From Thermomicrobiales bacterium (lineage in GTDB: Bacteria > Chloroflexota > Chloroflexia > Thermomicrobiales > UBA6265): a DNA stretch of 64,000 nucleotides. The DNA lies in the NCBI GenBank assembly GCA_023957115.1, contig JAMLHN010000003.1, positions 927 to 64,926 on the forward strand, in the 5' to 3' direction. The position numbers and the translations under genes were made by a program. The notes under the pieces were generated by a model. It had not been told where the DNA came from. It was given only the letters and a program-made list of their open reading frames with translations, and ran no database searches. Shown piece by piece: positions 22,640-61,329 of this stretch (position 1 is the stretch's first letter; each line of letters opens with the position of its first letter).

Positions 22640-23377
22640 CTAATACGTGGCGCGGCCGCCGGAGAGGTCGAACACGGCGCCGGTGCTGAACGAGAGATCG
22701 TCCGAGGACAGGAACGCCGCCAGCGCGGCGACTTCCTCTGGCTGTCCGACCCGGCCCATGGGGATCCTGCTGGTCATGTAGCTGATGTGCTCTTCGCTGA
22801 CCTGCGCCAGGATCTCGGTCGCAATCACGGCCGGCGTGATGGCATTGACCAGCACGCCCTTGGTGGCAACTTCCTTGGCGATGGCCTTGGTCAGACCGAT
22901 GACGCCCGATTTTGCCGCCGAGTAGGGCACCGCATTCGGGTTTCCTTCCTTCCCGGCGATCGAGGCGATATTGACGATGCGTCCATAGCCCTGATCGATC
23001 ATGCCGGTGATGAATGTCTGGCATCCGAGGAAAACGCCGGTCAGGTCGATATCGATGACCTGCTTCCACTCCTCGAAGGAGAGCTCCCAGGTTGGGGCGG
23101 AGCGCCCGGCAATACCCGCGTTGTTGACCAGAATGTCGAGGCCGCCGAAGGCCGCGTCGACTTCTTTCTTCGCCGCCTGCCACGATTCGGGCGAGGTGAC
23201 GTCAAGCTGCACGGCAATAGCGCCGCTGCCGATCCGTGCGGCGGTTTCCTTGCCTTTGTCGATGTCGAGATCGGCAATGACCACCTTCGCGCCGTTGCTT
23301 CCCAGCCGGGTGGCAATAGCCGCGCCGATACCACGAGCGCCACCGGTGACGAGGGCGCGCTTTCCTTCGAATTGCAT
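22640..23377 (-). CDS. SDR-family oxidoreductase (FabG-like)
   Basis: Start at ATG 23377 ([22 protein letters not shown]). TGxxxGxG, NNAG and YxxxK (YSAAK) motifs are present. Confidence 0.85.
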
Positions 23378-23459
23378 CGTTTCCTTACTCCATTCGAGCT
23401 CGGGATGACCCCGCAAAATCGTCTGCCGCGATCATGCCACAGCCGGCGAACCTGGACAC

Positions 23460-24254
23460 CTACTTCGAAAAGACTGCGATCTCGCCGACATCGAGAATGC
23501 GTACCTCGGAGGTGCCTCCAAGCTTGGCGAAGGTGGCCGCGAACTCGAGCGGATCGAGAGTTGCGCCGGGTCCGAATCCTTCCGGCGTCCACATGTTGTA
23601 GTGCATGGGTATGACGATTTTCGGCTTGACATACCAGGTCAGCAGTGCGGCCTCATGGGTGGTCAGATTGCCGCCGACCCCGTTGATGGGAACGATCATG
23701 ACGTCGATGTTTTCGTCAGCCATGGGGCGGAGTCGGGCGTCGTATTCGGTGTCGGCGACATCCCAGATCTTGAGTCCGTCGATCTCCAGCAGGTAGCCCA
23801 CCGCTTCGGGAGCAGGGGCCTGCGGAGTCTCGTGCCGTGCGAAGGTGGCCAGCACATCGATCTCCCCGATCGTGCGCCGCTCACCCGAGTCGATTTGGAC
23901 AACCTGCTCCGTGGGCCAGCCCCAGACCGGGGCACGTTGCGCGCAGGTGATCGGTCCGGCAAAGATGCCGGTCGCGCCGGCGGCGCTCCACTGCTTTACG
24001 AGGGGGACATCAAGATGGTCCTCATGCCAATGTGAGATCAAGAGGAGGTCGGGCTGCAGCTCGGCGGGATCGATTGCTGGAGGGAGGATGCGCACCAGCC
24101 CCCATTGCGTCTCCCCCCAATCGGTCAGATACGGATCGATCATCACGATCGTTCCGGCCGACGTTTTGAGTGCGTACCCCGCCTGTCCCAGCCAGACGAT
24201 GGCGACCGATCCTTTGTCGACGTTCAGGTCCTTGATTTGTTGTTCCAATGACAT
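23460..24254 (-). CDS. MBL-fold metallo-hydrolase (UlaG-like)
   Basis: Start at ATG 24254, with AAGGAG upstream. [12 protein letters not shown] zinc-binding motif. Confidence 0.75.
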
Positions 24255-24452
24255 CGATGTCTCCTTGTGTAAGAGCCCGGAAGGGGGCCCACCGTAGGCG
24301 CCCTCGTGACGACGTCGGCATGACGAGGATGGCAGCTCGTTGCCTACTGACATTGCGATTGGCAACGCACCGTTCCCAGATGGGAATACGTGTTGGGTAG
24401 CAGGGCGCCCACGGGGAGGCGCCCTACCGAAAAGCCGCGTTCCGGCTTCCTC

Positions 24453-25022
24453 TTAGCTGACGCCTTTCAGGCCGATCAGCGCCCGGGCGTGGTCCAGCTC
24501 GCCAAGATGGCGAATGCCGTGCTGGAAGATGATCGAATGGAGCAGCACCGACAACGGTACCCCCTCGCCCTCGTTCACGACCCGGCCCACGAAGCTCGCC
24601 TGATAGCTCTCCGGCAGGGTGGGATATTTCTCCGCTTCGTATGCTTCGTCGGAGAGCGATGCCAGCACCGATTCGGTGTGCGCAAAAACGGTTCGCTGAT
24701 AGTCGTTCCACGTCGCGGCGTTGCCGATCGTGGCGGTTTCGGCCTCTTCGATCCCGGTGCCGCGTCGGACATCGAGCGGATTTCCGCCGATACGCTGCTG
24801 CCAGTCGCCGGCTTCCCAGAGGGTCGGTTCGTCCAGCACCGCCTGGCAGATGAGCCGATCCTCGCCTCGGACATAGTGGAGCAGGGTGAAGGCGATCGGG
24901 AGCACGCCATCGCGCTCTCGATAGTTCATCTGCTCGGCCGTCAGATCGCCGGTGGACAGTGACCAGAGCCGGTGAAGCTCCCTGACCTGTCGCAGAAATC
25001 GCTCACGACTGGAAATGCTCAT
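24453..25022 (-). CDS. DinB-family (DinB_2/DUF664-like) protein
   Basis: 189 aa predicted helical protein with conserved His positions (LLHYV..., HSIIFQHGIRHLGE) as in the DinB superfamily. Confidence 0.6.
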   Translation of the reverse strand: MSISSRERFLRQVRELHRLWSLSTGDLTAEQMNYRERDGVLPIAFTLLHYVRGEDRLICQAVLDEPTLWEAGDWQQRIGGNPLDVRRGTGIEEAETATIGNAATWNDYQRTVFAHTESVLASLSDEAYEAEKYPTLPESYQASFVGRVVNEGEGVPLSVLLHSIIFQHGIRHLGELDHARALIGLKGVS

Positions 25023-25025
25023 CGG

Positions 25026-26171
25026 TTACTCCACGCGATATTTGTCGAAGACGTCCTTGTTGAGCTCGATGCCCAGTCCCGGTGTCTTTGGAATCACGAT
25101 ACACCCGTCCTCATCCAGCTGGACGCCCGGGGTAACCAGATCGGTGTTGAGAATCGAGCCCTCGCCTGGCGCCGGGGTCTCCTGAAAGATGCTGTTCGGG
25201 ATCGATGCATTGACGTGAATCGAAGCGGCGCCCAGGATGCCGGTGCTGAAATGGTGTGGCACGCACGGCTTGCGGTGGGCGTAGCAGTAGGCGGCGATGC
25301 GCATCGTTTCGGTAATGCCGCCGACCCGGGCCACGTCCGGCTGAATGACATCCAGATTGGCGCGGCTCACCAGATCGCGGAAGTCGCCAATGGTCTGCAT
25401 CTGCTCGCCTGCGGCAATGCGAACCGGAGAGCGGTCGCACAATTCACGGTAGCCATCCCAGTCGTCCGGGTGCAGCGGCTCTTCCAGCCAGTAGATATCG
25501 TAATCGGCAAAGATGTTGGCCCGACGAAGCGCCGTGGTGTGGTCCCATTCCGGACCACCGGAATCGTAGGCCCAGCCGACATCGAACATGATCGGCGCAT
25601 CGGGGCCAACCGCATTACGCACGCCTTCGACATGGGCACGGTCCGACTTCTCGTGGAAGCCGAAGTCCATCCAGCCGAATTTGAAGGCGGTGTAGCCGGC
25701 TTCCTTATATCGGTGGGCCTTTTCGGCCGTTTCTACGCCGTCTTTCCCGAACAGAGCAGACGCGTAGGCACGAACCTTGGCATCGGTCGAACCGCCGAGC
25801 AGGTCGCAGACCGGCTGACCGTACGCCTTCCCCTTGATATCCCAGAGCGCGATATCGACACCGCTGATTGCGTGCAAGACCGCGCCACGGCGACCCATGT
25901 AGATGGTGGCCTGGTACATCTTGCGCCAGAGTCGTTCGATGTCCAGCGGGTTTTCGCCGACCAGGACCTCCTTGAGGCCGACCATGACTGAATGCGAGCG
26001 GGGCGCGTCGACAACCGCTTTGGCGACATGGGGCGATGTTTCAGCCTCACCGATGCCGGTGATGCCTTCATCGGTATGGACGAGCACGACCGCTACGTCC
26101 TGGGTGCCGTTGGAGATTTCCGAGATGCTCGGAATCTTCAAATAGGCGACTTCGACATCAGTGATCTTCAC
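25026..26171 (-). CDS. Enolase-superfamily enzyme (mandelate racemase/muconate lactonizing family; sugar-acid dehydratase-like)
   Basis: I trimmed the ORF to GTG 26171 (VKITDVEVAYLKIP...), with AAGGAA upstream. ITGIGEAE, FKFGW, YWLEEP and RIAAGE blocks are typical of the family. Confidence 0.85.
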   Translation of the reverse strand: MKITDVEVAYLKIPSISEISNGTQDVAVVLVHTDEGITGIGEAETSPHVAKAVVDAPRSHSVMVGLKEVLVGENPLDIERLWRKMYQATIYMGRRGAVLHAISGVDIALWDIKGKAYGQPVCDLLGGSTDAKVRAYASALFGKDGVETAEKAHRYKEAGYTAFKFGWMDFGFHEKSDRAHVEGVRNAVGPDAPIMFDVGWAYDSGGPEWDHTTALRRANIFADYDIYWLEEPLHPDDWDGYRELCDRSPVRIAAGEQMQTIGDFRDLVSRANLDVIQPDVARVGGITETMRIAAYCYAHRKPCVPHHFSTGILGAASIHVNASIPNSIFQETPAPGEGSILNTDLVTPGVQLDEDGCIVIPKTPGLGIELNKDVFDKYRVE

Positions 26172-26703
26172 CCGGTCTGTTCCTTTCTTTTCGTTCTCGC
26201 AAGCCCAAAGCTTGCCGCATTCTACCCAAGCGGACGGCGCTGCGGAACGAAAACGGGCCGTACGAGGATGCACGGCCCGGAACGGAGCGCGACGGACCGG
26301 CTGGCGACCCGTCGGAGGCTGGTTCACTGCTTTCTGCTTCGAGGGTAGAACCGGGCCGGCAGTGAGGCAGTGCCGAACGCGACAGCCGTGGTGTGTGTTG
26401 CGACACACACCAGCGGGGGACATCGCAAGCGATGTCAGTGATTCCGTATACAGGTCGGGTGAGCTGCTCTATGCTCTGGGCTAGCGCGAATTGCCGAAGC
26501 GTCTGGACCCGATTCCCCGCCGTTGAAACGCTGGGCTCATACCCCTGTAGTGCGTACGTACGCGGCCGGACAGCTTTGGTTCTCCCTGAACGTCCAGAGC
26601 AGGTTGTCTGAACTCATCTGCAAGGCGCGCTAAACGTGCATCATAGGACCGCAGCGGTTGTGTCTACAGCCGATTGAAGAATGGTTGGCGCTTCCGAACC
26701 CCC

Positions 26704-27540: not shown

Positions 27541-28203
27541 CTATTCCAGTTCCTGACCATCGCCGAATCCCGCCTCACGAGCGCGCACAATCGCCTCGCC
27601 TCGGTCGGCGACCTGGAGTTTTTCGAAGATGGTCGACAGATGATTTGCGACTGTCTTCGAGCTGATGTGCAGATGCCGGGCGATCGTCTGGTTTCGATGT
27701 CCCAGGGCAAGCTCATCAAGGATCTCCCGTTCCCTGCGGGTCAGCTCCGGGAACGCGTCCGCTTGCCGCCGGCCCGGTGAACTGAACCATGCGAGCACCC
27801 GCGACGCGATCGCCGGGCTGAAGATTGCCTCTCCCGCTGCCACCGCCCGAATTGCGCGCACGAACTCCTCTTCATGCGCATCCTTGAGCACGTAGCCTTG
27901 TGCGCCGGCCCGCAGCGAGAGGAACACCGAGTCGTCATCCTCGAACAGGGTCACGACGAGCGCCCGGGTACGCGGTGATCGCTGTCGCAGCTCGCGGATC
28001 GCCACGATGCCACCCATCCCCGCCATTTGCAGGTCCATCAGGACGATGTCGGCGCCAGTTTCCTGGACCAGCGTGACCGCCTCCATGCCGGTTTCTGCCT
28101 CGCCCACGACCTGGAATTCCCGTATCGCCGAGAGCATCGTTACCATCCCCTTACGAAAGAGGGGATGGTCGTCCGCGACAACGATCCGGATTGGGCTGTC
28201 CAT
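27541..28203 (-). CDS. Response regulator, NarL/FixJ (LuxR-type HTH) family
   Basis: Receiver domain (IVVADDHPLFR...DIVLMDLQMAGMGG) plus a C-terminal LuxR HTH (LTRREREILDELALGHRNQTIARHLHISSKTVANH). Confidence 0.9.
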   Translation of the reverse strand: MDSPIRIVVADDHPLFRKGMVTMLSAIREFQVVGEAETGMEAVTLVQETGADIVLMDLQMAGMGGIVAIRELRQRSPRTRALVVTLFEDDDSVFLSLRAGAQGYVLKDAHEEEFVRAIRAVAAGEAIFSPAIASRVLAWFSSPGRRQADAFPELTRREREILDELALGHRNQTIARHLHISSKTVANHLSTIFEKLQVADRGEAIVRAREAGFGDGQELE

Positions 28204-37744: not shown

Positions 37745-38980
37745 CTACTCGTATCGCTTGAACAGGGCAACCGCGTTTTGACCGCCGAACCCGAATCCGT
37801 TGACCAGCGCCACATCGACTGGCATCTTGCGCGCAACGTTGGGGACGTAGTCCAGATCGCACTTCGGATCCGGGTCGGTCAGGTTGATCGTCGGCGGCAC
37901 GATGTTGTCGCGGATGGCATAGACACAGGCGATGGCAGAAACACCGCCAGCCGCGCCAAGAAGGTGTCCAACCATCGACTTGTTGGCCGAAGCGGCTAGC
38001 TTGTAGGCATGATCGCCAAAGGCCGTTTTGATGGCATCCGTTTCCGCGATATCGCCAACGTTGGTTGCGGTGGCATGCGCGGCGATGTAGTCGATATCCT
38101 GCGGTTGCAACCCGGACCGCTCGACCGCCAGCGACATCGCCCGGGCGGCATGCTTGCCATTGGGATCGGGCGCGGTGATATGGAACGCGTCGGAGGTGAA
38201 CGCCCCGCCGGTCAGCTCGGCGATGATGTTCGCGCCACGGGCGAGCGCATGCTCTTCCGATTCGACGATCAGGACGCCGCATCCCTCTGAGAAAACGAAG
38301 CCGTCCCGACCGAGATCGAACGGGCGGCTGGCGCCCGCGGGATCGTGGTTGCGCTTGGAAAGGGCACCCATATTGGCCATCGCGGTGATCGACGTGCGGC
38401 GCAGACCCGACTCGGCCCCGCCCGCGATGATGATGTCGGCTTCGTCCCGCTGAATCATCTGCGCTGCCTGGACGAACGCCTGCACACCGGAGGCGCACGC
38501 CGCCGACGACGTCACGGTCGGACCGTGAATCCCGAACGCCATCGAAACCTGGCAGCTGGCCATATTGGGAGCGAAGAGCGCGATGGTCAGCGGGTGCACC
38601 CATTTGGGGCCTTTTTCGACCATAGCTTCGACATTGGCTTCCATGATGGGGATACCGCCCCCACCACTGTTCATGATGACGCCGACCCGCTCGCTCTGCT
38701 CAGGATCGACGGTATACCCCGCATCGTTGAGCGCTTCGGCAGCGGATGCGACCGAAAAATGGGAGAATCGGTCCATCCGCTTCGCCAGCTTCGCATCCAT
38801 GTGGTCCTTTGGATCGAAGTTACGCACTTCGCCGCCGATGCGAACCTCGAGATCGGAAACGTCGAAATTCTCTATCTCGGCGATGCCCGACTTGCCGGCG
38901 AGCATCCCCTCCCAAAGCGTCGACGCGCCGATACCGAGTGGGGAAACAGCTCCTGCGCCGGTCACAACCACTCGCTTCAC
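37745..38980 (-). CDS. fabF: Beta-ketoacyl-ACP synthase II
   Basis: Start at GTG 38980 (VKRVVVTGAGAVSPLG), with GAGGAG 7 nt upstream. Active-site contexts SSAACASG, AHATATNVGD and KSMVGHLLGAAG form the Cys-His-His triad. Confidence 0.9.
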   Translation of the reverse strand: MKRVVVTGAGAVSPLGIGASTLWEGMLAGKSGIAEIENFDVSDLEVRIGGEVRNFDPKDHMDAKLAKRMDRFSHFSVASAAEALNDAGYTVDPEQSERVGVIMNSGGGGIPIMEANVEAMVEKGPKWVHPLTIALFAPNMASCQVSMAFGIHGPTVTSSAACASGVQAFVQAAQMIQRDEADIIIAGGAESGLRRTSITAMANMGALSKRNHDPAGASRPFDLGRDGFVFSEGCGVLIVESEEHALARGANIIAELTGGAFTSDAFHITAPDPNGKHAARAMSLAVERSGLQPQDIDYIAAHATATNVGDIAETDAIKTAFGDHAYKLAASANKSMVGHLLGAAGGVSAIACVYAIRDNIVPPTINLTDPDPKCDLDYVPNVARKMPVDVALVNGFGFGGQNAVALFKRYE

Positions 38981-39154
38981 AGGTAACTCCTCGATTGGGA
39001 ACCCGGACATTGGGCGAGAGCCGTTCGGTGGCCCGGGTTGGGGTCAGCAAAATTGACGATCGAGGGCGGAGCCGCCGATCAACGTGCTAGTGTACGGGAA
39101 ATCCGGCCCAACTCGTAGGAGTAGCCTCGACAAAGGATAGGGTGCACCGATTCC

Positions 39155-39611: not shown

Positions 39612-40595
39612 TCAGCGTCCGCTCAGCGTTGGAATCCCGAGTCCCAATCCTGCCATCGGGATGGTTTGCGCGCCGGGTGCAATGCGCTTGATGAGCCCCG
39701 CAAGCACGGTGCCCGGTCCAATCTCGAAGAAGGTCTTGACTCCGGCATCGGTCATGGTCTGGATCGAGCCGGTCCAGTCGACCGGACGCTCCATCTGCAA
39801 ATCGAGCTCCTCGTAAAGACCCCCGGTGGTGTAGATCGGCTGGGCCGACGTGTTGCCGATCACCATACCGCTCGGTTTCTCCGGGAACTCGGGCAGCGAG
39901 AGCGCCGCATCACGCAGCAGCTTCTGGAATTCCGTATTGGCGCTCGCCATTAGTGGCGAATGCGACGCGATCGAGACATTCAGACGCGCCACCCGGCGCG
40001 CGTTCTTCCCTTGGCGAGTTCCATGGTTGCTTCGAGGCCACGAACATCGCCCGAGATCACGGTCTGGCCCGGGCAATTGCGATTGGCGGGAACGACGACG
40101 CCATCCGCCGAGGCGGTACGGCAAACGTCGGCAATTGCCTCATCGTCGAGTCCAAGCACCGCAGCCATACCGCCGGGATTAACCTCACCGGCTTGTTTCA
40201 TCAGCGGCCGCGCTCGCGAACGAGCGACAGCGCGGTTGAAACCGCATGATCCCCGCCGCGACCAACGCGGAGAACTCACCGAGCGAATGACCGGCGACAT
40301 AATCGGGCGCCAGGGGAACGTCGGCCTCCTGGGCGTTCTCGTTGAGCGCAGCCAGCGCGGCAATGCTGACTGCCAGGATGGCCGGTTGGGCATTGACCGT
40401 GTCTTCCAACGCTTCGGCCGGGCCGTTCTGGATCAGCTCGGTCAGCCCAAAGCCGAGGGTGTCATCGGCCAGCGCCATCATCGCGCGGGCCATCTCGCTG
40501 GCGTCCAGCAACGGTCCGGCCATCCCGACGAACTGGCTTCCCTGTCCCGGGAAAACGAACGCGTACGGTGGGGCTGGAATGGTTGGTTCGGTCAC
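39612..40595 (-). pseudogene. fabD: Malonyl-CoA:ACP transacylase split across three frames by three apparent 1-nt deletions
   Basis: GTG 40595: FVFPGQGSQ...AGHSLGEFSALVAAG, then a shift near 40246; AVSTALSLVRERGR, then a shift near 40205; LMKQAGEVNPGGMAAVLGL...ANRNCPGQTVISG...MELAK, then a shift near 40009; GKNARRVARLNVSIASHSPLM...FFEIGPG. All FabD blocks are present and collinear. Confidence 0.8.
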
Positions 40596-47450: not shown

Positions 47451-48374
47451 TTAGGCGAATTCGACCGGGAAGCCGATTGGTGGGTTGGGGAGGTCTTCGC
47501 CGAAGTAGGTCTTGAACGCCGCCTGGTAGATCGGGAAATCCAGCCCGACCATCGCCTGCATGAGCGCGGTGTCGACGAAGTTCAGGAAAACCTGATCGCC
47601 CGGCTTGATGGACGCGGCGTACGACTGGGCATCCCAACCTTCCGGCACCGTCTTGTAGGCATCCGGATCCTGCGCCACCATCCAGCGACCGGTGGACATG
47701 TCGATCGCGGTTGCATCGACACGGCCCGAATCGAGCGCCTCGACCGATGCCGCCACCGAGTCGAATTGTTCCACGTTGGCATCGGGGATTCCGCGCCGGA
47801 CCATGTCCTCGGCGGTGACATTGGCCAGGATGGCGATGGTCAACCCCTGGTCCTGCATCTCGGCGAGCGAATTGAACTCCGAGTCGGAGGGCAGGATCAC
47901 GGTGACCCCCTCACGATAGTAGGGAACCGTGAAGGCGACCTGCAGCGCGCGCGCCGGGGTGACGGTCATGAACTGGAAGTTGATATCGACCTTGTCCGCG
48001 AGCAGGTCGGGGATACGCGCATCGGCCTCGTGCACGACGAAGTCGATATAGTTGCGCGGCTCTTCTCCGTCGAGAATCTGCTGCTGGTCGAGACCGAAAA
48101 TGCCACCCGCAAGCAGCATGGCGAGCGAAATGTCGAATCCGACCAGCTGGCCGTTTTCGTCCTCGAAGTGCCACGGCGGGTTGGTGCTCCCGGTTCCGAC
48201 GACGATCTTGCCCCGGTCGAGAATCCTGCCGAGGAGACTGTCCGACGTCGCATCCTGCGCCATCGCATGCAGGCTCGGCAGCGAAACAGCCGCGGCCGCT
48301 CCACCGATAAGCGCGCCCCGTGAAATCAGACTACGGCGACTTGTCGTCATTCCCTGGATCCGGTTCTCTGGCAT
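47451..48374 (-). CDS. Amino acid ABC transporter substrate-binding protein (family 3 SBP), TAT-like signal
   Basis: Start at ATG 48374, with GGAGG 6 nt upstream. SRRSLISRGALIGGAAAA signal. GTGSTNPPWHFEDENGQLVGFDISL is typical of PBP type 2 family 3. Confidence 0.8.
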   Translation of the reverse strand: MPENRIQGMTTSRRSLISRGALIGGAAAAVSLPSLHAMAQDATSDSLLGRILDRGKIVVGTGSTNPPWHFEDENGQLVGFDISLAMLLAGGIFGLDQQQILDGEEPRNYIDFVVHEADARIPDLLADKVDINFQFMTVTPARALQVAFTVPYYREGVTVILPSDSEFNSLAEMQDQGLTIAILANVTAEDMVRRGIPDANVEQFDSVAASVEALDSGRVDATAIDMSTGRWMVAQDPDAYKTVPEGWDAQSYAASIKPGDQVFLNFVDTALMQAMVGLDFPIYQAAFKTYFGEDLPNPPIGFPVEFA

Positions 48375-48570
48375 CTGTGCCTCCACTCTTTCTATTTGCA
48401 TGACGCCCATGCGCATGCAAAACGATCGGATCGATCAATTCCACCATCGTGTCGGGATCCCCATGCATTCTCGGGCGATCCGATTCGGCTGTCAACGCGG
48501 GCAAGCTACCATGCGAATTGCTTACTATGCCGGAAGCGATGCCGCGATTTGCCTGCGACGAGGTCGACCG

Positions 48571-49734
48571 ATGACAGAGATCTACCAGAAACTTGGCGTT
48601 CAGCCGGTTATCAATTGCGCCACGACGTACACCCGGCTTGGCGGATCGATCATGGCTCCGCACGTGGCGCAGGCAATGGCAGACAGCGCCGGCGTCTTCG
48701 TCAACATCTTCGATTTACAGGAAGCCGTCGGAAAGCGCCTGGCCGAGCTGACCCACAATGAAGCCGCGTATGTCAGTAACGGGGCGGCGGCGGCGCTGAC
48801 ACTAGCGACCGCCGCGGCGGTAACGGGGAACGATGTCGCGCTGATGGCTCGATTCCCGAACCGCCTCGACGGACTCAAGAATCAAGTCGTGGTGCACCGG
48901 TATCAGCGCAACTGGTATGACGTGGCCGTGCGTCTGACCGGGGTCGAGCTGGTCGAGATCGGCCACACGTACGAGACCTACGACTGGGAGCTGGACGACG
49001 CGATCAACGACCGTACGGCGGCCGTCATCTACTTCGCAGGCACACACCTCAACCGGAACACCCTGCCACTCGAATACGTGATCGAGCGCGCGCATGCGCG
49101 GGGGGTTCCCGTCATCGTCGACGCGGCGGCGCAGCTTCCACCCGCATCCAATCTCTGGCATTTCACGCGCGATCTGGGCGCCGATGTGGCGATTTTCAGT
49201 GGTGGCAAATTGTTGCGCGGTCCGCAGAATAGCGGCTTGGCGGTCGGTACGGAGAAGATGATCGAGGCGATGCGGCTCAACGGTCCGCCGGTGCAGCGCA
49301 TCGGCCGGCCGATGAAGGTTTCCAAGGAGGCGATGATTGGATTGCTGGCCGCGGTCGAAACGTACTTGGAAACCGATCACGACGCCGAGGCGTTGAAGTG
49401 GGAGACCGTCGTGGCCAGTTGGCAAACCGCCTGGCAGGAGCTGGCGCCCCGCTGGCTCACGGTCGAACGGTCGGCGACAGGAGAAGCCGGCGAGCCGATT
49501 CCGCGTATTTTGATGCGCGTTTCGCCCGACGCTCCGCTTTCCCGGGACGATCTGATCGAAGGCCTGCACGCTGGAAACCCACCTATCGAGGTCGTCGTCG
49601 AAAACCAAACGACGATCGCATTCAGCCCGCACCTGTTGCAGCCTGGGGAAGCCGAGATCGTCGAACGACGCGTTTCAGAGTTGATTGCAAGCCATCTGCT
49701 TGCGCAGCCATCCGGAGCGATTGCCGGGGACTAG
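48571..49734 (+). CDS. SelA-like/DgaE-like PLP-dependent enzyme (fold type I)
   Basis: I trimmed the track ORF to ATG 48571 (MTEIYQKLGVQPVINCATTYTRLGGS...). Collinear with D-glucosaminate-6-phosphate ammonia-lyase-like proteins, including VIVDAAAQ and FSGGKLLRGPQ (candidate PLP lysine). Confidence 0.65.
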   Translation: MTEIYQKLGVQPVINCATTYTRLGGSIMAPHVAQAMADSAGVFVNIFDLQEAVGKRLAELTHNEAAYVSNGAAAALTLATAAAVTGNDVALMARFPNRLDGLKNQVVVHRYQRNWYDVAVRLTGVELVEIGHTYETYDWELDDAINDRTAAVIYFAGTHLNRNTLPLEYVIERAHARGVPVIVDAAAQLPPASNLWHFTRDLGADVAIFSGGKLLRGPQNSGLAVGTEKMIEAMRLNGPPVQRIGRPMKVSKEAMIGLLAAVETYLETDHDAEALKWETVVASWQTAWQELAPRWLTVERSATGEAGEPIPRILMRVSPDAPLSRDDLIEGLHAGNPPIEVVVENQTTIAFSPHLLQPGEAEIVERRVSELIASHLLAQPSGAIAGD

Positions 49735-50902: not shown

Positions 50903-50947
50903 CAAGACCCAGGGCTCAGGACGCAGGGCCGTTTCGAACACGCCCTA
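50903..50947 (-). repeat. 45-nt stop-codon-abutting motif (copy 2)
   Basis: caagacccagggctcaggacgcagggccgtttcgaacacgcccta. The terminal cta (50945-50947) is the TAG stop of the 50945..51865 gene. Confidence 0.85.
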
Positions 50948-51865
50948 CCTTCCCACCGGCACCGGCGACATGACCGCATCCGGATAGAGCCGCTTGAGCA
51001 TGTCGTACCCGATCCGGGCGCGGCGTAGGCGTTCGCGGGTGAGCGCAATTGCGGTGCTTTCCAGATGGGTGCCCGCTGGATAGATGTTGGGGGCGTTGCG
51101 CAGGCCAAATTTGAGATAGACCGGAGCGCAGACCCGCACTAGCTCGCCGATCTCGTAGTGCCGAATGAATCCGCCGATGTCGTCCGGAACCTCGACATAG
51201 ATATCGAGCGGCATGGTGGTCGCCGCGCGGATCGCCGCCAGCTGAGCCAATGAGAGATCGGTCGGCGTATTGAAGGTGGTCAGACCGAGATCTTGCAGCA
51301 GCCGAACCGAGACTGGATTCGCCGCGCCGAGCATGACCGATCCCTTGAGGATCAAGTCCTGAGGCAATTCACCCGCTTCCTTCATCTTGCCCAGAACGAG
51401 CAGGAGTCCCTCATCGGTCACGAGCACGCTGTTGATGCCATGCTCGAGTGCGCGCTTGACGTCCTCGACCGCGTGGACGAGCTGATCCATGCCACGCGCC
51501 TTCGGCCCGACGATCTTGCCGGCGCTGGAATAGGCCATGGCGCCGGTGTCCCAGCCGGCCCGTGGACCGACGAAGAGGCTTATCTCGATACCGCGCTGGC
51601 GGCCCAGACCGGCCATCTCGTCGAGCTCATCGTCGGTCAGCAACATGACGCCGCTTCCCTGACTGACCCGGTGCAGGGGGACGCCAAACTCGTCAGCCGA
51701 TGCATAGACCGTGCGCAGTGCATTGGGCCCTTCGACCGACGGGATCTCGATACGCCATTGCCCGCCGTCCGGAAAACGTTGATCCGACGATGGCAGATCG
51801 CGCAGATCCCGATCCGGCAGCCCAATGCTGCGGAGAAACGCCTGGGTTCCTTGAATTCCGTTCAC
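50945..51865 (-). CDS. Conserved hypothetical protein (306 aa), last gene of the KAS/NMO operon
   Basis: I trimmed the track ORF to GTG 51865 (VNGIQGTQAFLRSIG...), with GAGGGA 6-7 nt upstream. Composition is coding-like throughout. I do not recognise the family. Confidence 0.5.
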   Translation of the reverse strand: MNGIQGTQAFLRSIGLPDRDLRDLPSSDQRFPDGGQWRIEIPSVEGPNALRTVYASADEFGVPLHRVSQGSGVMLLTDDELDEMAGLGRQRGIEISLFVGPRAGWDTGAMAYSSAGKIVGPKARGMDQLVHAVEDVKRALEHGINSVLVTDEGLLLVLGKMKEAGELPQDLILKGSVMLGAANPVSVRLLQDLGLTTFNTPTDLSLAQLAAIRAATTMPLDIYVEVPDDIGGFIRHYEIGELVRVCAPVYLKFGLRNAPNIYPAGTHLESTAIALTRERLRRARIGYDMLKRLYPDAVMSPVPVGR

Positions 51866-51981
51866 GCGTACTCCCTCGTTGTCATCCGAAACGCCGCCCT
51901 GGCGCTCATCGTGCCCAAAGATTAGCGGGAGATGCGGAGTGCGTGGGGCTGGCATCCCGGCATCATTGCATGGATTCCGTA

Positions 51982-52986
51982 TCAGCCGTGGGAACCGAGA
52001 CGGTCGAGGCTCTCGGTAGCTTGCTGGGCGACCGATTGCACCACCGCCGCGGCTGGAAGAACCTCGTGCATCACGCCCACGCTCTGACCGGCATAGAGCA
52101 CCATGCTTTCCAGATCGCCAGTCGTGCGGGCGCCGGGAAAATCGTCGTGGTACCGCATGATTGGGGCGCCTTTGCTGGTGTGCCCCAGGACATCGCCTTC
52201 GCCGGGCCCGCGACCCGGTTCCGGCCGCCCGGCCTCTTCCCAGAGCTGAAGTGATCGGTTGTGCAGGGTGCGCAGGGGGGTATTCGGCGGCCAACCGCCG
52301 CGGAAGAGCGTGGTGTGGATCGTATCCCCGGCGCCGGCCTCGACCATCCATCCTTGGTACTCGGGGTGCGCGTCGGCTTCCTCGGTCAGCAGGAACCGGG
52401 TGCCCATCCAGACCCCCGAGGCGCCCAGACAGAGCGCGGCGGCCAGCCCACGACCGTCGCCGATTCCTCCAGCAGCCAGCACCGGGGTCGGGCCAACCGC
52501 GTCGACGACTTCGGGAAGGATTGCCATGATGCTGGTCTGCCCTTCGACATGGCCGGATGCCTCGTACCCTTGCACCACAATGGCATCTGCGCCGGCGTGC
52601 TTTGCGCCGATGGCCCCCGCAGTCGATCCCACCATGTGCACCAGCAGCGCACCGGCAGCGTGGATCTGCTCGACCCAGGGCCCGGGATCGCCCCAGGAGA
52701 GCGAGATGATCGGGACTCCTTCTTCCAGGGCAATGGCCAGCCGCTCGACCGGATCCCAGTGCAGCACGAGATTGATACCAAAGGGACGATCGGTGAGCTC
52801 CCTGGTCTGCCGAATGACCTCACGTGCTTCTGAGGGCGACCGCCAGGTGAGTGACAGCATGCCAAGCGCGCCGGCATTGCTGACGGCGGCGGCCAGCTGT
52901 GGGGTGGTGGCCGATCCGATTGGAGCCTGAACGATGGGGAGGTCGATATTGGCCAAGCTGGTGAAATCAGTGGCGAGCGATGTCAT
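51982..52986 (-). CDS. Nitronate monooxygenase family FMN oxidoreductase (NMO/2-nitropropane dioxygenase; FabK-like fold)
   Basis: Start at ATG 52986 (MTSLATDFTSLANIDLPIVQAPIGS). IVVQGYEASGHVEG and AAGGIGDGRG blocks are typical of the NMO/FabK family. Confidence 0.85.
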   Translation of the reverse strand: MTSLATDFTSLANIDLPIVQAPIGSATTPQLAAAVSNAGALGMLSLTWRSPSEAREVIRQTRELTDRPFGINLVLHWDPVERLAIALEEGVPIISLSWGDPGPWVEQIHAAGALLVHMVGSTAGAIGAKHAGADAIVVQGYEASGHVEGQTSIMAILPEVVDAVGPTPVLAAGGIGDGRGLAAALCLGASGVWMGTRFLLTEEADAHPEYQGWMVEAGAGDTIHTTLFRGGWPPNTPLRTLHNRSLQLWEEAGRPEPGRGPGEGDVLGHTSKGAPIMRYHDDFPGARTTGDLESMVLYAGQSVGVMHEVLPAAAVVQSVAQQATESLDRLGSHG

Positions 52987-53404
52987 GACGGTGATTTCCT
53001 CGATGATCGTGATCGAGCAGCCAGCGGATGCGCGAAAACGAAAGAACGTAATTGAGGGCGGCGAAGGTCCAGAGCGTTTCGGCAGCCCAGCGGCTACCCG
53101 TAACCCAAAGTCCATATCCGGCCAGCAGAAAAAGCCCGATCTCGAGGATCAGGCGCACCGGTCCCGACGTTGGGATGACACCCGGTTTGGCTGCTGGTGG
53201 CATACCGGGGGTGCGAAAAAGGCCCCATATGAGCATAGCGCCAAGTGCAAAAACGATAGCGAATATCCAGCGCGTGACGCCGTCACCCACCTGCCAGCCG
53301 ATAATCGCAAACGACGCCCACATCGCCAGCTCCAGCAGGAACATGACGACATCCGGGAAACGAATCGGTTGTCGGGTCGTGTCTTCGTCGGGATTGGTGC
53401 TCAA
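52967..53404 (-). CDS. DUF2568 (YrdB-like) small membrane protein
   Basis: FLLELAMWASFAIIGW...IFAIVFALGAMLIWGLF..P......RLILEIGLFLLAGYGLW fits the four-TM DUF2568 pattern. Confidence 0.6.
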   Translation of the reverse strand: MSTNPDEDTTRQPIRFPDVVMFLLELAMWASFAIIGWQVGDGVTRWIFAIVFALGAMLIWGLFRTPGMPPAAKPGVIPTSGPVRLILEIGLFLLAGYGLWVTGSRWAAETLWTFAALNYVLSFSRIRWLLDHDHRGNHRHDIARH

Positions 53405-53871
53405 AGCGTCTTGGCGGCGAGCCCGGCGGTGACGATGTCGGCGAGATGGTCGGAGACGTGGTTGCCGAAGACCGTCACGATCTTTTCGAGCGTCTGCGTC
53501 CCTGCCTCTGGATGCTGGACCGTCTGCTGCCAGGCATCGCCGGGCAGATTGCGGAGAACGGAGAGATTGACCGAACGGAGCGCGGCCAGCGCATCGAGCT
53601 GCAGATCGTCGGGTACCTTGTCGTACGAGATCCTGGCTTCATAGAGATCTGGATCGAAGGGGGCAAGCTGGCCGCCTGGATTGGCGATCGCAACGCGCAT
53701 GCGGGCCGAGAAGATCAGCTCCGTTTCCAGCAGGTGCTTCAGAATTTGCCGCGCGCTCCAACCCCCGTCGATCGGCTCGTCTCGCCGCGCGGCCGGAATC
53801 TGACGATAGACCATGACGAATTCGGTCATGGCATTGGTCCATTCGGCCAGCTGCGCGCCATGACTGCTCAT
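53401..53871 (-). CDS. DinB-family protein (DinB_2)
   Basis: WSARQILKHLLETELIFSARMR and FGNHVSDHLADI His-containing helices. ATGA overlaps with both neighbouring genes. Confidence 0.65.
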   Translation of the reverse strand: MSSHGAQLAEWTNAMTEFVMVYRQIPAARRDEPIDGGWSARQILKHLLETELIFSARMRVAIANPGGQLAPFDPDLYEARISYDKVPDDLQLDALAALRSVNLSVLRNLPGDAWQQTVQHPEAGTQTLEKIVTVFGNHVSDHLADIVTAGLAAKTL

Positions 53872-55277
53872 TCGAGATCCTCGCTTGTCTGTTGTGCGAA
53901 TTCCTCGGGAGCACGCTTGATGATCAATGCGGCGTTCTGACCTCCAAGTCCGAATCCATGCTTGGCCATATGGTCGAATGCATGTGGGCGCGGCTCGCCA
54001 TGGACCACATCGAGGGCGATGTCGGGGTCGGGATTCTTGTAATTGGCGGTTGGTGGGATGACCTGCTCGGCCATCGAGAGGACGCCCATGGCGGTTTCGA
54101 TGGCGCCGGCTCCGCCCATACAGTGTCCAATGTTCCCTTTGACCGACATGACGGGGATGGACGACGTGCGCTCCCCATAGATCTGATGAATCGCTCGCGC
54201 TTCGGCCACGTCCCCGGCTGGAGTCGAGGCTGCATGAGCCTGAATGTGACCGATCTGATCCGGGTTAACCCCGGCATCGGCCAGGGCGCCCGCAATGGCA
54301 CGGGCGGCCCCGGTGCCATCGGGCTGCGGGGCAATTGGATGGTAGGCGTCATTGCTGGAGGCGAATCCCACGATCTCGGCAAAGACGCGGGCGCCCCGTG
54401 CCATGGCGAAGTCGTAATCTTCGAGCACCAGTGCTCCGGCGCCTTCGCCCAGGGCGAACCCGGCGCGCGTGGCATCGAAGGGACGCAACGCGGACTCGGG
54501 ATGTTCGTTGGAGTCGGTCACCAGGGCGCGCATGGCCGAGAAGCCCGCGACCCCCATTGGGTGGACGGTCGATTCCGTCGCCCCTGCCACCATCAGTGGG
54601 GCGATGCCAGCCTGGATGACGTGGAAGGCCTCACCGATTGCCTGGGTTCCGGTCGCGCACGCCGTCGAGACGGTGTTGCTGGGACCGCCCATTCCGAACC
54701 GCCATTGCACGGTGTAGGACGCCATGTTGAGCGGAAACTTCACATGGAGATGGGGCGAGAGCCGGTCATGTCCTCGCGTATTGAAGGTGTCGTAGGCGGG
54801 GAGGAGATCATCGTAGCTTCCGCCGACGCAGGTGCCGATGACCGATCCACCTGGGAGGAGATCCATCAGTGGCGTCCCCTCGGCATCGATCAGCCCAGCC
54901 GAGATCATCGCGGCGCCGGTCGCCTCCAGCAGCCAGAGACTGAACTGCGAGGTGTTGCGGGCCGTTTTCGGATCCAGGAATCGGTTCGGGAGGTTGTCCA
55001 TGTCCAGATCGCCACGGACCTGGCAGGCGTAGTTGCCGTCCTGGAGATAGGGAATGCGCTTGATGCCGCTCTTCCCATCGAGGATATTGCCCCACGCTTC
55101 TTTGGCGGTCAGGCCGACGGCGCAAACCGCACCCACTCCGGTGACCACCACCCGCCGGCGGGTGCGCGGGCGTTGTCCGCGGAGCCCGCTGCCACAGGCG
55201 CTGCAGAACTGCTGCGTCTCGGAAACCGAGACGCCACAGATTGGACACGAAGTCGACGAAGAGGCAGCGAGGGTCAT
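53868..55277 (-). CDS. Beta-ketoacyl synthase (KAS I/II-type, Cys-His-His) with an N-terminal zinc-ribbon extension
   Basis: ATG 55277, with AGGAA upstream. N-terminus MTLAASSSTSCPICGVSVSETQQFCSACGSGL (CxxC...CxxC), then RRVVVTGVGAVCAVG. Active-site contexts STACATG, AHAASTPAGD and GNIGHCMGGAG. Confidence 0.85.
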   Translation of the reverse strand: MTLAASSSTSCPICGVSVSETQQFCSACGSGLRGQRPRTRRRVVVTGVGAVCAVGLTAKEAWGNILDGKSGIKRIPYLQDGNYACQVRGDLDMDNLPNRFLDPKTARNTSQFSLWLLEATGAAMISAGLIDAEGTPLMDLLPGGSVIGTCVGGSYDDLLPAYDTFNTRGHDRLSPHLHVKFPLNMASYTVQWRFGMGGPSNTVSTACATGTQAIGEAFHVIQAGIAPLMVAGATESTVHPMGVAGFSAMRALVTDSNEHPESALRPFDATRAGFALGEGAGALVLEDYDFAMARGARVFAEIVGFASSNDAYHPIAPQPDGTGAARAIAGALADAGVNPDQIGHIQAHAASTPAGDVAEARAIHQIYGERTSSIPVMSVKGNIGHCMGGAGAIETAMGVLSMAEQVIPPTANYKNPDPDIALDVVHGEPRPHAFDHMAKHGFGLGGQNAALIIKRAPEEFAQQTSEDLE

Positions 55278-55806
55278 GCAGAGTTCCTGAACGATGCGCG
55301 GACACGAGACGATAAATGGCCAAAGCCGCCGGTGAGCGAGTGTAGATCGAAGACCGGCATTGAAAAATCCAGCCAAGTATAGCGGTCTGCTCTGAACGGA
55401 CGAGCGCCCGGCGCGGCTATCAGCCTGCGAAACCGGGCGCTCGATCGTGTCATGTTCGCTGCCGAGGAGTTCGACTCATGGTCGCGAACAGAGATTGCCA
55501 TGAGACGGTGGGGTTTTCTGGACGGGTTGCCCCGGTTCGAAGACCGGTCAACCGTACTGGGGAGTGTAAGAGGATGTTAGAAGTCGATCGGGTGGCTACG
55601 CCCGGTCGTCGACATGCCTCCTGGTGCTCAATTGGGTTCCCCCTTTCGTTGCAAGCACCCTGGTTGACCCCGAGTTTCCCCGGGTGCCCGGCAAGATGAA
55701 CGACGCATCGCTGCAACTGAAATTGCGCCGTTCACTCCAGTAAACGCGGGAGCCTGGAAAAAGGTTTCATGGCGTACGTACGGCTGGGGCGGAACGAGTA
55801 GGCGGG

Positions 55807-55992: not shown

Positions 55993-56247
55993 TCAGTTGT
56001 CGGCGAGGATGACGCGCTCACCGTCCAGACCGTGCAGTGCGGAACCGAGCTCGTACGCTTCGTCTCGGCTCATCAGGATGCGGATACTGGGCGCGCCGTC
56101 GGCTGGTCCGAGGTCGATCTGAATCTCGCTATTGGGCAACGATTTGACCACCGCGGCCCCGACGATACGCACGGTTTCATCTCCATCGAAAAGCTGAAAC
56201 TTCACACTGGTACCCGCCTGCTCTTCTGGCTGTCGAACGATGGCCAA
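55993..56247 (-). CDS. Hypothetical small protein (70-84 aa; start uncertain)
   Basis: TTG at 56247 lacks an RBS, and an internal GTG (VKFQLFDGDETVRIVG...) is an alternative start. Composition is coding-like. No family recognised. Confidence 0.35.
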   Translation of the reverse strand: MAIVRQPEEQAGTSVKFQLFDGDETVRIVGAAVVKSLPNSEIQIDLGPADGAPSIRILMSRDEAYELGSALHGLDGERVILADN

Positions 56248-59778: not shown

Positions 59779-60790
59779 TAGAGCAAAGACCTAAAGGGTT
59801 GCCAATGTGGCACGATCGTGCCATGCTGTGGCCATGCCCCGTGCCTATTCGGTCGACCTCCGTGAACGGGTGATGGCAGCCGTGGCGGACGGCTGCTCCA
59901 TTGCTGAGGCGGCCCACCGGTTTTCCGTCAGGGTCGATGCGATCTATGACTGGCGGCGCCGACAGCAGACCACCGGGTCGCTGGCGCCGACGACCCACCA
60001 CTGCGGACGCCCTCGTCGCGTGAGCCCGGAGATGGATCGGGCACTGCAGGCGCAGATCGACGCGGAGCCCGATGCTACCCTGACCGAATTGCAGGCGTGG
60101 CTGGCCACGGAGCATGGGCTCGTCGTCGGTCGTGGCACGGTCATTCGGGCCGTGGCGCGACTGGATCGTCCCCGAAAAGAGTCTGATCGCCACCGAGCGC
60201 GATCCTGAGCAGCGGGCAGCGTGGCACCAGGACCAGGCGCGGTTGGTGGCCGACGATCTGGTCTTTCTGGACGAAACCAGTACCCAGATCACCCTGACCC
60301 GCCGCCATGGCCGAGCCCTACCGTGGGCACCGGCTGGTCGCGGCGGTTCCCCGCAACCACGGACGCAACGTCACCTGCCTGGCCGCGTTGCGCACAACCG
60401 GAGTGGGACCATCCCTGGTCTTCGAAGGTGCGCTCAATGGACCGGTCTTTGCCCAGTGGGTGCGCACGCAGTTGGTACCGACCTTGCGACCGGGTCAGAT
60501 CGTGATCCTGGACAACCTGAATGTGCATAAGGCTCCCGAGGCGCGGCGGGCCATTGAGGCCGCTGGGTGTCAGCTGCGCTTCCTGCCAGCCTATTCGCCG
60601 GACTTCAATCCGATCGAACTGGTCTTCAGCCGGCTCAAGACCCACCTGCGCACCATCGCCGCACGCACGGTCGATGCCTTGATGACGGCAATCGGGGATG
60701 GGCTCAATGCCGTCACCGCCACCGATGCCCGCAACTGCGTGCGCATGCTGGGTATTCCTAACCAGGGCGACCTTTTCGGTCTGCGCTCTA
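59779..60790 (+). mobile_element. IS630-family insertion sequence (about 1.0 kb) with TA target-site duplication in a CTAG site
   Basis: Imperfect terminal inverted repeats: ctagagcaaagacctaaagggttgcc at the left, versus the reverse complement of the right end, ctagagcgcagaccgaaaaggtcgcc. TA at 59779-59780 and 60789-60790. It encodes an IS630-type HTH plus DDE transposase. Confidence 0.8.
59834..60788 (+). pseudogene. IS630 transposase split over three frames (two +1 shifts at C-runs)
   Basis: MPRAYSVDLRERVMAAVADGCSIAEAAHRF...ARLDRP, shift near 60170; EKSLIATERDPEQRAAW...VFLDETSTQITLTRRHGRA, shift near 60317; YRGHRLVAAVPRNHGRNVTCLAAL...ILDNLNVHK...LPAYSPDFNPIELVFSRLK. No in-frame stop occurs before the right IS end. 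Confidence 0.75.
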
Positions 60791-60822
60791 GGAATTGGGT
60801 GTCGGGAGTTGGCCGGGCCTAC

Positions 60823-61329
60823 CTACTGATTGCCGGTGACCGGCTGCTGGCCGCTCCGTTCCAGAACCTCGAAGTCGTGGGGGAAGGCGAGTTCGGGGAG
60901 GGCATCGGCGGAAAACCAACCGAGCTCGGTCAGGTCGTCACCCGCGGTTGCGGCGCCGGAAACGATCGTACCCCTGTAGACGGCGAGGACGACGGTTTCC
61001 CCTGAAGATGAGAGCAGACCGAGCAATTCGCCCAGCTCGATCTGGAATCCCGTTTCCTCCAGCACTTCACGGACCGCCGCATCCTCGACCTTCTCGCCCC
61101 GCTCGACGAATCCCGCCGGAAAGCTCCACTTCCCCGCGGCGCGGGCGCCCGGTCCACGCCGCCCGAGCAGAACCTTGCCGTCCCGCTGAAGCACCACTGC
61201 CACCGCCAGCTTGGGATCGAGATAGGTGACCGCGCCACAGCGTTCGCAGACCGGACGCGGGCGGCCGTCGTGCGCTCGCACGACCGTTTCCCCTCCGCAT
61301 CGCTGGCAATAGAGCATCGTTCCATCCAT
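60823..61329 (-). CDS. NUDIX hydrolase with an N-terminal zinc ribbon
   Basis: C-terminal part of the 664-aa track ORF. YCQRCGG...CERCG zinc ribbon, then the Nudix box GKWSFPAGFVERGEKVEDAAVREVLEETG. The start is uncertain (ATG at 61317, 61329 or 61353). Confidence 0.8.
   Translation of the reverse strand: MDGTMLYCQRCGGETVVRAHDGRPRPVCERCGAVTYLDPKLAVAVVLQRDGKVLLGRRGPGARAAGKWSFPAGFVERGEKVEDAAVREVLEETGFQIELGELLGLLSSSGETVVLAVYRGTIVSGAATAGDDLTELGWFSADALPELAFPHDFEVLERSGQQPVTGNQ

Follow-up and report, generated by a model that had tools for sequence, protein, structure and literature searches.

The locus considered here belongs to a 64,000-nucleotide stretch (hereafter the window) of contig JAMLHN010000003.1 (assembly GCA_023957115.1, positions 927 to 64,926 of the forward strand), with a G+C content of about 62%, from an uncultured soil bacterium of the Thermomicrobiales (Chloroflexota). 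Five open reading frames (ORFs) of the minus strand, at 50945-55277, had originally been predicted to form an unusual operon, in which a β-ketoacyl synthase (KAS) accompanies a flavoenzyme of the NMO family. All five are found at these coordinates by ORF inspection and Pfam searches, with the domains and, apart from one detail given below, the overlaps proposed. The first encodes a divergent KAS II of 469 residues, a paralog of FabF with an N-terminal CxxC...CxxC zinc ribbon, which is the anchor gene of the cassette (53868..55277). It is followed by a small metalloprotein of the DinB_2 or YfiT-like type (156 residues, 53401..53871), which occupies a variable accessory slot, by a small membrane protein of the DUF2568/YrdB family with four hydrophobic segments (145 residues, 52967..53404) and by an NMO-family flavin mononucleotide (FMN) enzyme, FabK-like but no FabK equivalog (334 residues, 51982..52986). 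The last, a U32-like TIM-barrel protein of 306 residues (50945..51865), is a syntenic neighbour that stands outside the cassette. Two further features of the same strand precede the KAS gene, namely a structured noncoding element (55401..55731), detected by conservation and covariation, and a small ORF of 84 codons with a GPADG motif (55993..56247). Together, the first four genes form a genuine, translationally coupled operon that is restricted to this lineage, and the cassette is built on a new subfamily of FabF paralogs.

The coupling can be read from the junctions. The KAS and DinB genes share an ATGA overlap and the DUF2568 and NMO genes overlap by 20 nucleotides, both as originally described. 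The DinB/DUF2568 overlap is also of 4 nucleotides, but it reads TTGA instead of the ATGA first reported, which implies a TTG start for DUF2568; this start is uncertain, the choice being between the TTG at 53404 and an internal ATG at 53347. A gap of 116 nucleotides, again as predicted, separates the NMO gene from that of the 306-residue protein, which starts with GTG behind the ribosome-binding site GAGGGAG. At the other end of the operon, KAS starts with an ATG at 55277, and neither this codon nor the AGGA ribosome-binding site in front of it varies in eight relatives. The five are real genes and not chance ORFs; more than 7,000 database homologues were retrieved for each of the three proteins searched (KAS, NMO and the 306-residue protein), and their top matches are proteins from metagenome-assembled genomes of Thermomicrobiales. 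A scan for promoter and terminator consensus sequences yielded nothing beyond shuffled expectation, and the window contains no detectable tRNA and no Rfam match at gathering thresholds.

The KAS looks like a FabF in most of its general features. Both Pfam domains of the family are present (ketoacyl-synt N-terminal domain, E = 1e-40; C-terminal domain, E = 5e-35), preceded at residues 9-31 by weak zinc-ribbon matches that remain under the Pfam cut-offs. The fold and the domain pair are those of FabF, the Cys-His-His triad and the catalytic lysine are kept as Cys205 (TACATG), His347 (AHAAST) and Lys380/His384 (KGNIGH), the conserved Asp of gating loop 2 is found in the motif NDAYH, and the best matches among hidden Markov models (HMMs) and PDB entries are FabFs. 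The subfamily model PRK07314 is also passed (412.8 bits for a threshold of 387). However, the score on the FabF equivalog model TIGR03150 is 414.3 bits, below its cut-off of 493.75, whereas the other KAS of the window (37745-39010) reaches 537.1 bits on the same model and is a true FabF. These two enzymes share 35% identity, and the solved FabFs are matched at 285-322 bits by the paralog, as compared with 350-420 bits by the true FabF.

Differences are also observed in the active-site loops. The FGFGG motif of FabF is replaced by FGLGGQN in 116 of the 120 top KAS homologues, with a leucine instead of the gatekeeper phenylalanine (Phe400 in the E. coli numbering); the KAS of the window reads GFGLGGQN, whereas GFGFGGQN is found in its true FabF and in that of one relative (locus L001). 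Likewise, AHAAST stands in all 120 homologues in place of the AH(G/A)TST motif of FabF (AHGTST in its usual form). The cysteine motif TAC[AS]TG is present in 120 out of 120, and the Lys/His motif in 117. The N-terminal CxxC...CxxC ribbon, foreign to FabF, is kept by about 40% of these homologues, members of about 430 residues being devoid of it, and another difference from FabF is the co-operonic YrdB membrane protein. Taken together, the HMM scores, the 120 homologues and the level of identity to the true FabF show that this KAS is not an ordinary FabF. As judged from its sequence, it is a distinct paralog, with a decarboxylating site that looks catalytically competent and a remodelled gate.

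Second FabF-type enzymes devoted to special acyl chains are known in other bacteria, such as the mycobacterial KasA/KasB, the rhizobial FabF1XL/FabF2XL and NodE. The present paralog resembles them in that it stands beside a housekeeping enzyme. It is no member of the KasA/KasB family (288 bits on the NCBIfam model, for a cut-off of 560), and those systems come with their own acyl carrier protein (ACP) and other dedicated genes, none of which is found in this cassette.

The gene contexts of the KAS were compared through contig look-ups, a scan of a genome collection and a metagenome scan with the KAS, the last of which gave 16 loci, 10 of them relevant; all comparisons lie inside one order, the Thermomicrobiales. 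The closest relatives, termed clade A, are 12 contigs besides the window, with a KAS identity of 83-87%. DinB directly follows KAS in these contigs, sometimes in two copies, and DUF2568 and NMO come next with the same overlaps wherever the contig extends. The KAS-DinB-DUF2568-NMO order is kept in all clade A contigs that reach these genes. Since the order is conserved and the KAS is no ordinary FabF, the gene string put forward originally survives as a finding.

More distant relatives display a set of simpler or altered arrangements. KAS-DinB-YrdB-U32-like is found in L097 (KAS identity 68%), and KAS-YrdB-U32-like, with KAS and YrdB overlapping, in L107 and L003 (62-66%). L109 (60%) has KAS and YrdB only, the latter starting 7 nucleotides after the former. 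A cupin_2 gene takes the place of DinB in two loci, L002 (60%), with KAS-cupin-YrdB-NMO, and L108 (62%), with KAS-cupin-NMO, where the NMO gene is frameshifted in the assembly. Two opposite-strand genes are inserted between KAS and YrdB in L010 and L013 (57-62%), and KAS stands alone in L087 (59%). DinB is thus replaced in L002 and L108 and absent from L003, L107 and L109; in most lineages YrdB comes after KAS in the same orientation, and directly in these last three; NMO follows the KAS cassette both in clade A and in L002 and L108, hence in no fewer than three lineages. Several other homologues of KAS and NMO lie on short contigs of equal size (for example 3889, 5113, 12726 and 19545 bp), which suggests additional KAS-NMO co-locations. 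The cassette is combinatorial: KAS is constant, YrdB is its most persistent partner, one slot is filled by either DinB or cupin, and many loci lack NMO. The view of the KAS and NMO string as one unit holds in part, as related orders are met at about 60% KAS identity, but neither DinB nor NMO is a constant partner. Of note, a 6.3-kb contig binned as Sandaracinaceae (Myxococcota; L005, JBDHVC010000112.1) carries an NMO gene (82% identical), a U32-like gene (94%), orf244 and a DgaE-like gene in the order of the window, and almost certainly belongs to a Thermomicrobiales genome and was mis-binned.

The partners of KAS could be assigned to families with different degrees of precision. The DinB protein matches Pfam DinB_2 (E = 8e-12, 46 bits, cut-off 24.8), and the histidines that bind the metal in YfiT (PDB 1rxq) have their aligned counterparts in His46, His138 and His142. 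It shares with YfiT and the metal-dependent thiol transferases of this type the DinB four-helix fold and the His-His-His metal triad, but its score on the YfiT equivalog model is 50 bits, far from the cut-off of 160. A second DinB_2 gene of the window (24453-25022) lies in the 22640-26423 segment of the minus strand, between a gene of the MR/MLE enolase superfamily and a metallo-β-lactamase-fold gene together with a short-chain dehydrogenase/reductase (SDR); DinB_2 genes are thus common and promiscuous in this genome. The membrane protein matches DUF2568 (PF10823; E = 1e-16, 61.1 bits, cut-off 24.2) over positions 1-87 of the 92 of the profile. Its plasmid homologues are annotated as YrdB family, and a literature search on DUF2568/YrdB retrieved nothing functional.

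The flavoenzyme matches Pfam NMO with an E value of 8e-59 (200 bits), and FabK is its only curated-family match. Among solved structures it comes nearest to the FabKs of Thermotoga, Clostridioides, Porphyromonas and Streptococcus (143-171 bits), ahead of the nitronate monooxygenases and PA1024 (119-127 bits). The likeness to FabK includes the NMO-type TIM barrel, the FMN cofactor and a position in the same neighbourhood as KAS, fabD and fabF. In the fab clusters of Streptococcus, fabK adjoins fabD, fabG and fabF.

This neighbourhood deserves a closer description, since the cluster had first been considered as separate from the fabD/fabF locus. In the window, fabF (37745-39010) and fabD (39612-40595) indeed lie about 15 kb from KAS. 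In relatives, however, the fabD-fabF pair is found 1-5 kb beyond the gene of the 306-residue protein, in the same syntenic block. The order in Thermomicrobiales is PBP1A, small ORF, KAS, YrdB, U32-like protein, secreted protein, DgaE-like protein, FabD, FabF and SH3-domain protein. The window keeps this order, except that a block of amino-acid and sugar ABC-transporter genes, with ymdB, has come to lie between fabD and the DgaE-like gene. The separation seen in the window corresponds to this ABC-transporter block, interposed in this clade, and the cassette is no island of its own but belongs to the fab neighbourhood.

The fabD gene of the window (minus strand) is split into two ORFs by at least two frameshifts, its protein being otherwise well conserved, and similar frameshifts affect the KAS and FabF genes of L009, as well as the NMO gene of L108. 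This points to assembly indels, in the style of long-read errors, or to a pseudogene. On the other side of the cassette, tblastn homologues of the 84-residue ORF are found upstream of KAS in every locus that extends far enough, except L109, and the ORF is kept even in L002 and L087, where all the other neighbours differ. It matches no Pfam or NCBIfam family. The possibility that it encodes an ACP was considered and ruled out, as its serine is not invariant and no DSL motif is present. An IS630-type transposase gene lies farther away on the plus strand (59807-61005), split into an HTH ORF (59807-60208) and a DDE_3 ORF (60307-61005), which reflects either frameshifting, programmed or accidental, or decay.

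The region between this small ORF and KAS contains another conserved feature. About 490 nucleotides before the KAS start (a block at about 55283-55770) are conserved in eight relatives (71-74% nucleotide identity) and include blocks, the longest of 20 nucleotides, that do not vary at all; 37 of the 38 positions around GGGGAAACTCGGGGTC are invariant. The helices span 55731-55401 (about 330 nucleotides), and a conserved TATACT is located about 95 nucleotides before the KAS ATG. RNAalifold predicts 98 pairs, 24 of them with compensatory double changes, versus 11.9 ± 2.3 in column shuffles (0 of 500 reaching the observed value) and 3-9 in slid controls, the structure being derived from the same eight related sequences as the covariation. 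The invariant G-U pairs favour the KAS-sense strand, and the folding z-score of the window element is -3.5. No conserved ORF is found in the element, with stops in all frames of all sequences, and a search of the KAS upstream region against Rfam gave no match with an E value up to 5. A covariance model of the 130-nucleotide core retrieves only the close clade, a truncated copy in L090 and one weak match (E = 0.47) upstream of KAS in L001. From its conservation and predicted pairing, the element is a candidate for a new leader RNA or small RNA. A remnant response regulator was also considered for this gap and ruled out, its sole tblastn match being elsewhere in the window (27589-28188).

How these genes could work together is best considered from the condensing enzyme. 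The reading that we favour, with a probability of roughly 40%, is that type II fatty-acid synthesis has here an accessory cassette, specific to Thermomicrobiales, which is not a self-contained pathway. In favour of it are the two KAS genes of the window, the features of the paralog that recur throughout its clade, the operon structure, the FabK matches of NMO, the syntenic block shared with fabD-fabF, and the precedents of fabK in Streptococcus and of FabF paralogs devoted to special chains. The KAS would most likely take acyl-ACP from the housekeeping synthase and extend it with malonyl-ACP provided by the nearby FabD, and would thereby likely yield acyl chains that differ in length or type from those of the ordinary FabF. 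The ACP, the ketoreduction (FabG) and the dehydration (FabZ) would be borrowed from the housekeeping system. Where present, the FabK-like flavoenzyme would supply or supplement the enoyl reduction in this clade. The YrdB protein would probably tie the enzyme or its product to the membrane, and the DinB/cupin slot would be a variable accessory. The paralogy, the intact catalytic residues, the changed loops, the structure and conservation of the operon and the distinct context of gene 5 are observed, whereas the choice of substrates, the reliance on ACP and the parts played by NMO, as a reductase, and by YrdB are inferred.

Several observations weigh against this reading. As stated in the original prediction, and in agreement with the domain search of the cluster genes, the cluster encodes no ACP, ketoreductase or dehydratase, and in the rest of the window a generic SDR at 22640-23416 was the only such candidate recognised. 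The use of partners from the type II system is therefore an assumption, required by the lack of these three functions in or near the cassette. The replaced gating phenylalanine could mean another chemistry or another substrate class. The NMO protein scores 205 bits on the FabK model TIGR03151, far under the cut-off of 453.1, five of its relatives score 200-239 bits, and the whole subfamily (200-240 bits) lies under this cut-off; FabK activity is a prediction from sequence, and the link to fab genes is not constant. The NMO family also includes nitronate monooxygenases and NADH:quinone oxidoreductases, homologues about 57% identical stand alone in unrelated neighbourhoods, and most of the deeper lineages lack the gene beside KAS. 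We know of no role of DinB or cupin proteins in fatty-acid synthesis. On Streptomyces plasmids, no KAS is found near YrdB, the neighbours of which are unrelated. Finally, the shared gene order, seen within a single order, could be partly inherited synteny.

Some of these points would equally fit the main alternative, which we regard as somewhat less likely than the favoured reading. According to it, only KAS, together with YrdB, would form a functional unit, without any extension/reduction module, and DinB, cupin and NMO would be unrelated redox or detoxification passengers that a permissive operon has taken up repeatedly. Candidate roles would then be those of a thiol or metal transferase, and of a nitronate monooxygenase or an NADH:quinone oxidoreductase. 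The variation of the middle and end slots between lineages is in line with such a view, as is the capture of Uma2, MFS and opposite-strand genes in the operon region. The isolated NMO homologues and the lack of FabK equivalog status point the same way, and so does the abundance of DinB_2 genes, another of which lies beside the U32-like gene in KAS-free loci, in addition to the second copy of the window. Against this view, NMO recurs after KAS in at least three lineages, over a range of 60-100% KAS identity and with start/stop overlaps. The divergence of NMO (55% identity to L002) also tracks that of KAS (60%), as co-inheritance predicts, and its nearest characterised relatives are FabKs.

The suggestion made at the outset was different, namely a lipid or small-molecule route of its own. 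Here the cassette would be dedicated to making a specialised small molecule or a polyketide-like lipid, and KAS would perform a condensation outside fatty-acid synthesis, DinB or cupin and NMO acting as tailoring enzymes. We consider it improbable. It can be defended from the KAS loops (GLGG and AHAAST), which differ from those of all canonical FabFs across the clade, from the frequent use of the cupin, DinB and NMO folds in tailoring enzymes, and from the conserved structured element upstream, which suggests dedicated regulation. However, the conserved core includes no carrier protein, acyltransferase, thioesterase, adenylating enzyme or exporter, and its minimal conserved form is KAS with the four-transmembrane protein. 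Moreover, the block is syntenic with fabD-fabF, and the best HMM matches of KAS are FabFs and not polyketide ketosynthases.

The fifth gene has to be considered apart. Its 306-residue product, first described as unrecognised, belongs to a large and highly conserved TIM-barrel family. The Pfam match to Peptidase_U32 is marginal (24.5 bits for a gathering threshold of 22.4) and covers positions 8-90 of the profile (83 of 233). The AlphaFold2 model is a confident eight-stranded barrel (pLDDT 84), for which Foldseek retrieves class II aldolases as best matches, aldolases of the HMG/DmpG type, IMPDH and one U32 peptidase, Mk0906 (5d88), at rank 30, with TM-scores of about 0.5; this outcome is a generic TIM-barrel result. 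A profile search of the family against PDB sequences gave nothing significant. The likeness to the U32 superfamily (PrtC, RlhA, TrhP, UbiU/UbiV) lies in this marginal Pfam match, the 5d88 match and the predicted barrel, whereas the partial coverage of the profile, the lack of a cysteine cluster and a sugar-acid catabolic context set the family apart. Conserved cysteines hold a 4Fe-4S cluster in UbiU/V. The 306-residue protein has a single cysteine, and none occurs in the invariant or nearly invariant columns of the two family alignments (A1 and A2), which rules out an Fe-S enzyme of the UbiU/V or RlhA type. Similarly, the His triad of class II aldolases is not among the invariant residues of the family. 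A replacement of the 2-keto-3-deoxy-6-phosphogluconate (KDPG) aldolase was also ruled out, because a canonical Eda is encoded in the same Bacillota clusters.

The family includes 1,140 clusters at 50% identity, and its members are 55-65% identical across Chloroflexota, Bacillota, Actinomycetota and Acidobacteriota. Its loci were searched with a closer alignment of 9 sequences, a diverse one of 27 sequences being too divergent. KAS is found within 8 kb in 3 of the 80 species-level loci, all of them from Thermomicrobiales or Chloroflexia. Genes for galactonate dehydratase, dehydratases of the IlvD/Edd or UxaA type, 2-keto-3-deoxygluconate (KDG) kinase, FAH-family proteins and alpha-ketoglutarate-semialdehyde dehydrogenase are present in 42 of the 80, and genes for KDPG aldolase, gluconolactonase, an RraA-like aldolase and a zinc alcohol dehydrogenase are also met nearby. 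The common denominator of these contexts is 2-keto-3-deoxy sugar-acid metabolism, and the family possibly performs a step on such acids. In the Bacillota-type loci, the gene directly adjoins that of a 735-residue IlvD/Edd-type dehydratase (11 of 11), and a homoserine kinase gene is directly adjacent in all 9 loci that have one, mostly from Bryobacterales and other Acidobacteriota. In the window, a pyridoxal-phosphate-dependent ammonia-lyase of the DgaE family (SelA-like) is encoded at about 48570-49734 on the plus strand, within an ORF at 48052-49734, convergent with the 306-residue protein gene and adjoined by an amino-acid ABC transporter (47451-48416 and beyond). The DgaE family makes a 2-keto-3-deoxy sugar acid, and the DgaE-like gene is syntenic with the gene of the 306-residue protein in several Thermomicrobiales.

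The proposed five-gene operon is consequently reduced to four genes. A gene of the Uma2 family (restriction-endonuclease-like), absent from the window, stands between NMO and the fifth gene in the sister genomes L085 (10371-10919) and L086 (10365-10925), and marks this gap as an insertion-prone boundary; elsewhere, the family of the fifth gene belongs to sugar-acid clusters. Gene 5 is a separate syntenic gene of sugar-acid metabolism and no member of the operon. That all five genes serve one pathway is hardly credible: the KAS-YrdB-U32-like order does recur in several lineages (L001, L003, L097 and L107) and the 116-nucleotide gap is short and free of any terminator-like hairpin, but a Uma2 gene or an opposite-strand MFS gene precedes the fifth gene in L085, L086, L002 and L009, the U32-like gene is missing beside KAS in L087, L108 and L109, other copies from Thermomicrobiales, at 78% identity, have no KAS in their vicinity (L008, L014 and L015), and the neighbours across phyla are galactonate dehydratase, IlvD/Edd-type and UxaA dehydratases, KDG kinase, Eda, a lactonase and alpha-ketoglutarate-semialdehyde dehydrogenase.

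A more specific role for the cassette can be imagined, although it would be a very improbable one at present. KAS and YrdB, with the remodelled gate, the zinc ribbon and, in some lineages, the FabK-like reductase, would provide the condensing step of a Thermomicrobiales-specific lipid pathway, under the control of a new structured leader RNA of about 330 nucleotides. One candidate pathway would be that of the long-chain 1,2-diols and of the very long or mid-chain-branched chains, which replace glycerolipids in Thermomicrobium. The biosynthesis of these unusual lipids was described as unresolved in the Thermomicrobium genome paper (PMC2615216), and our search found no later literature on diol biosynthesis genes in Thermomicrobia.

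The picture of the locus is thus corrected on three points: the unit has four genes instead of five, its surroundings are those of the fab genes, and its accessory genes are interchangeable. Two by-products of the analysis are perhaps worth more than the operon itself, namely the covarying RNA candidate and a TIM-barrel family present in four phyla and tied to sugar-acid metabolism. The KAS paralog also offers a natural variant for studies of gating in elongating ketosynthases. For the Thermomicrobiales themselves, this second condensing enzyme, present throughout the clade with its gatekeeper residue replaced and with a dedicated membrane partner, is a concrete and testable candidate for acyl-chain diversification in their unusual membranes.

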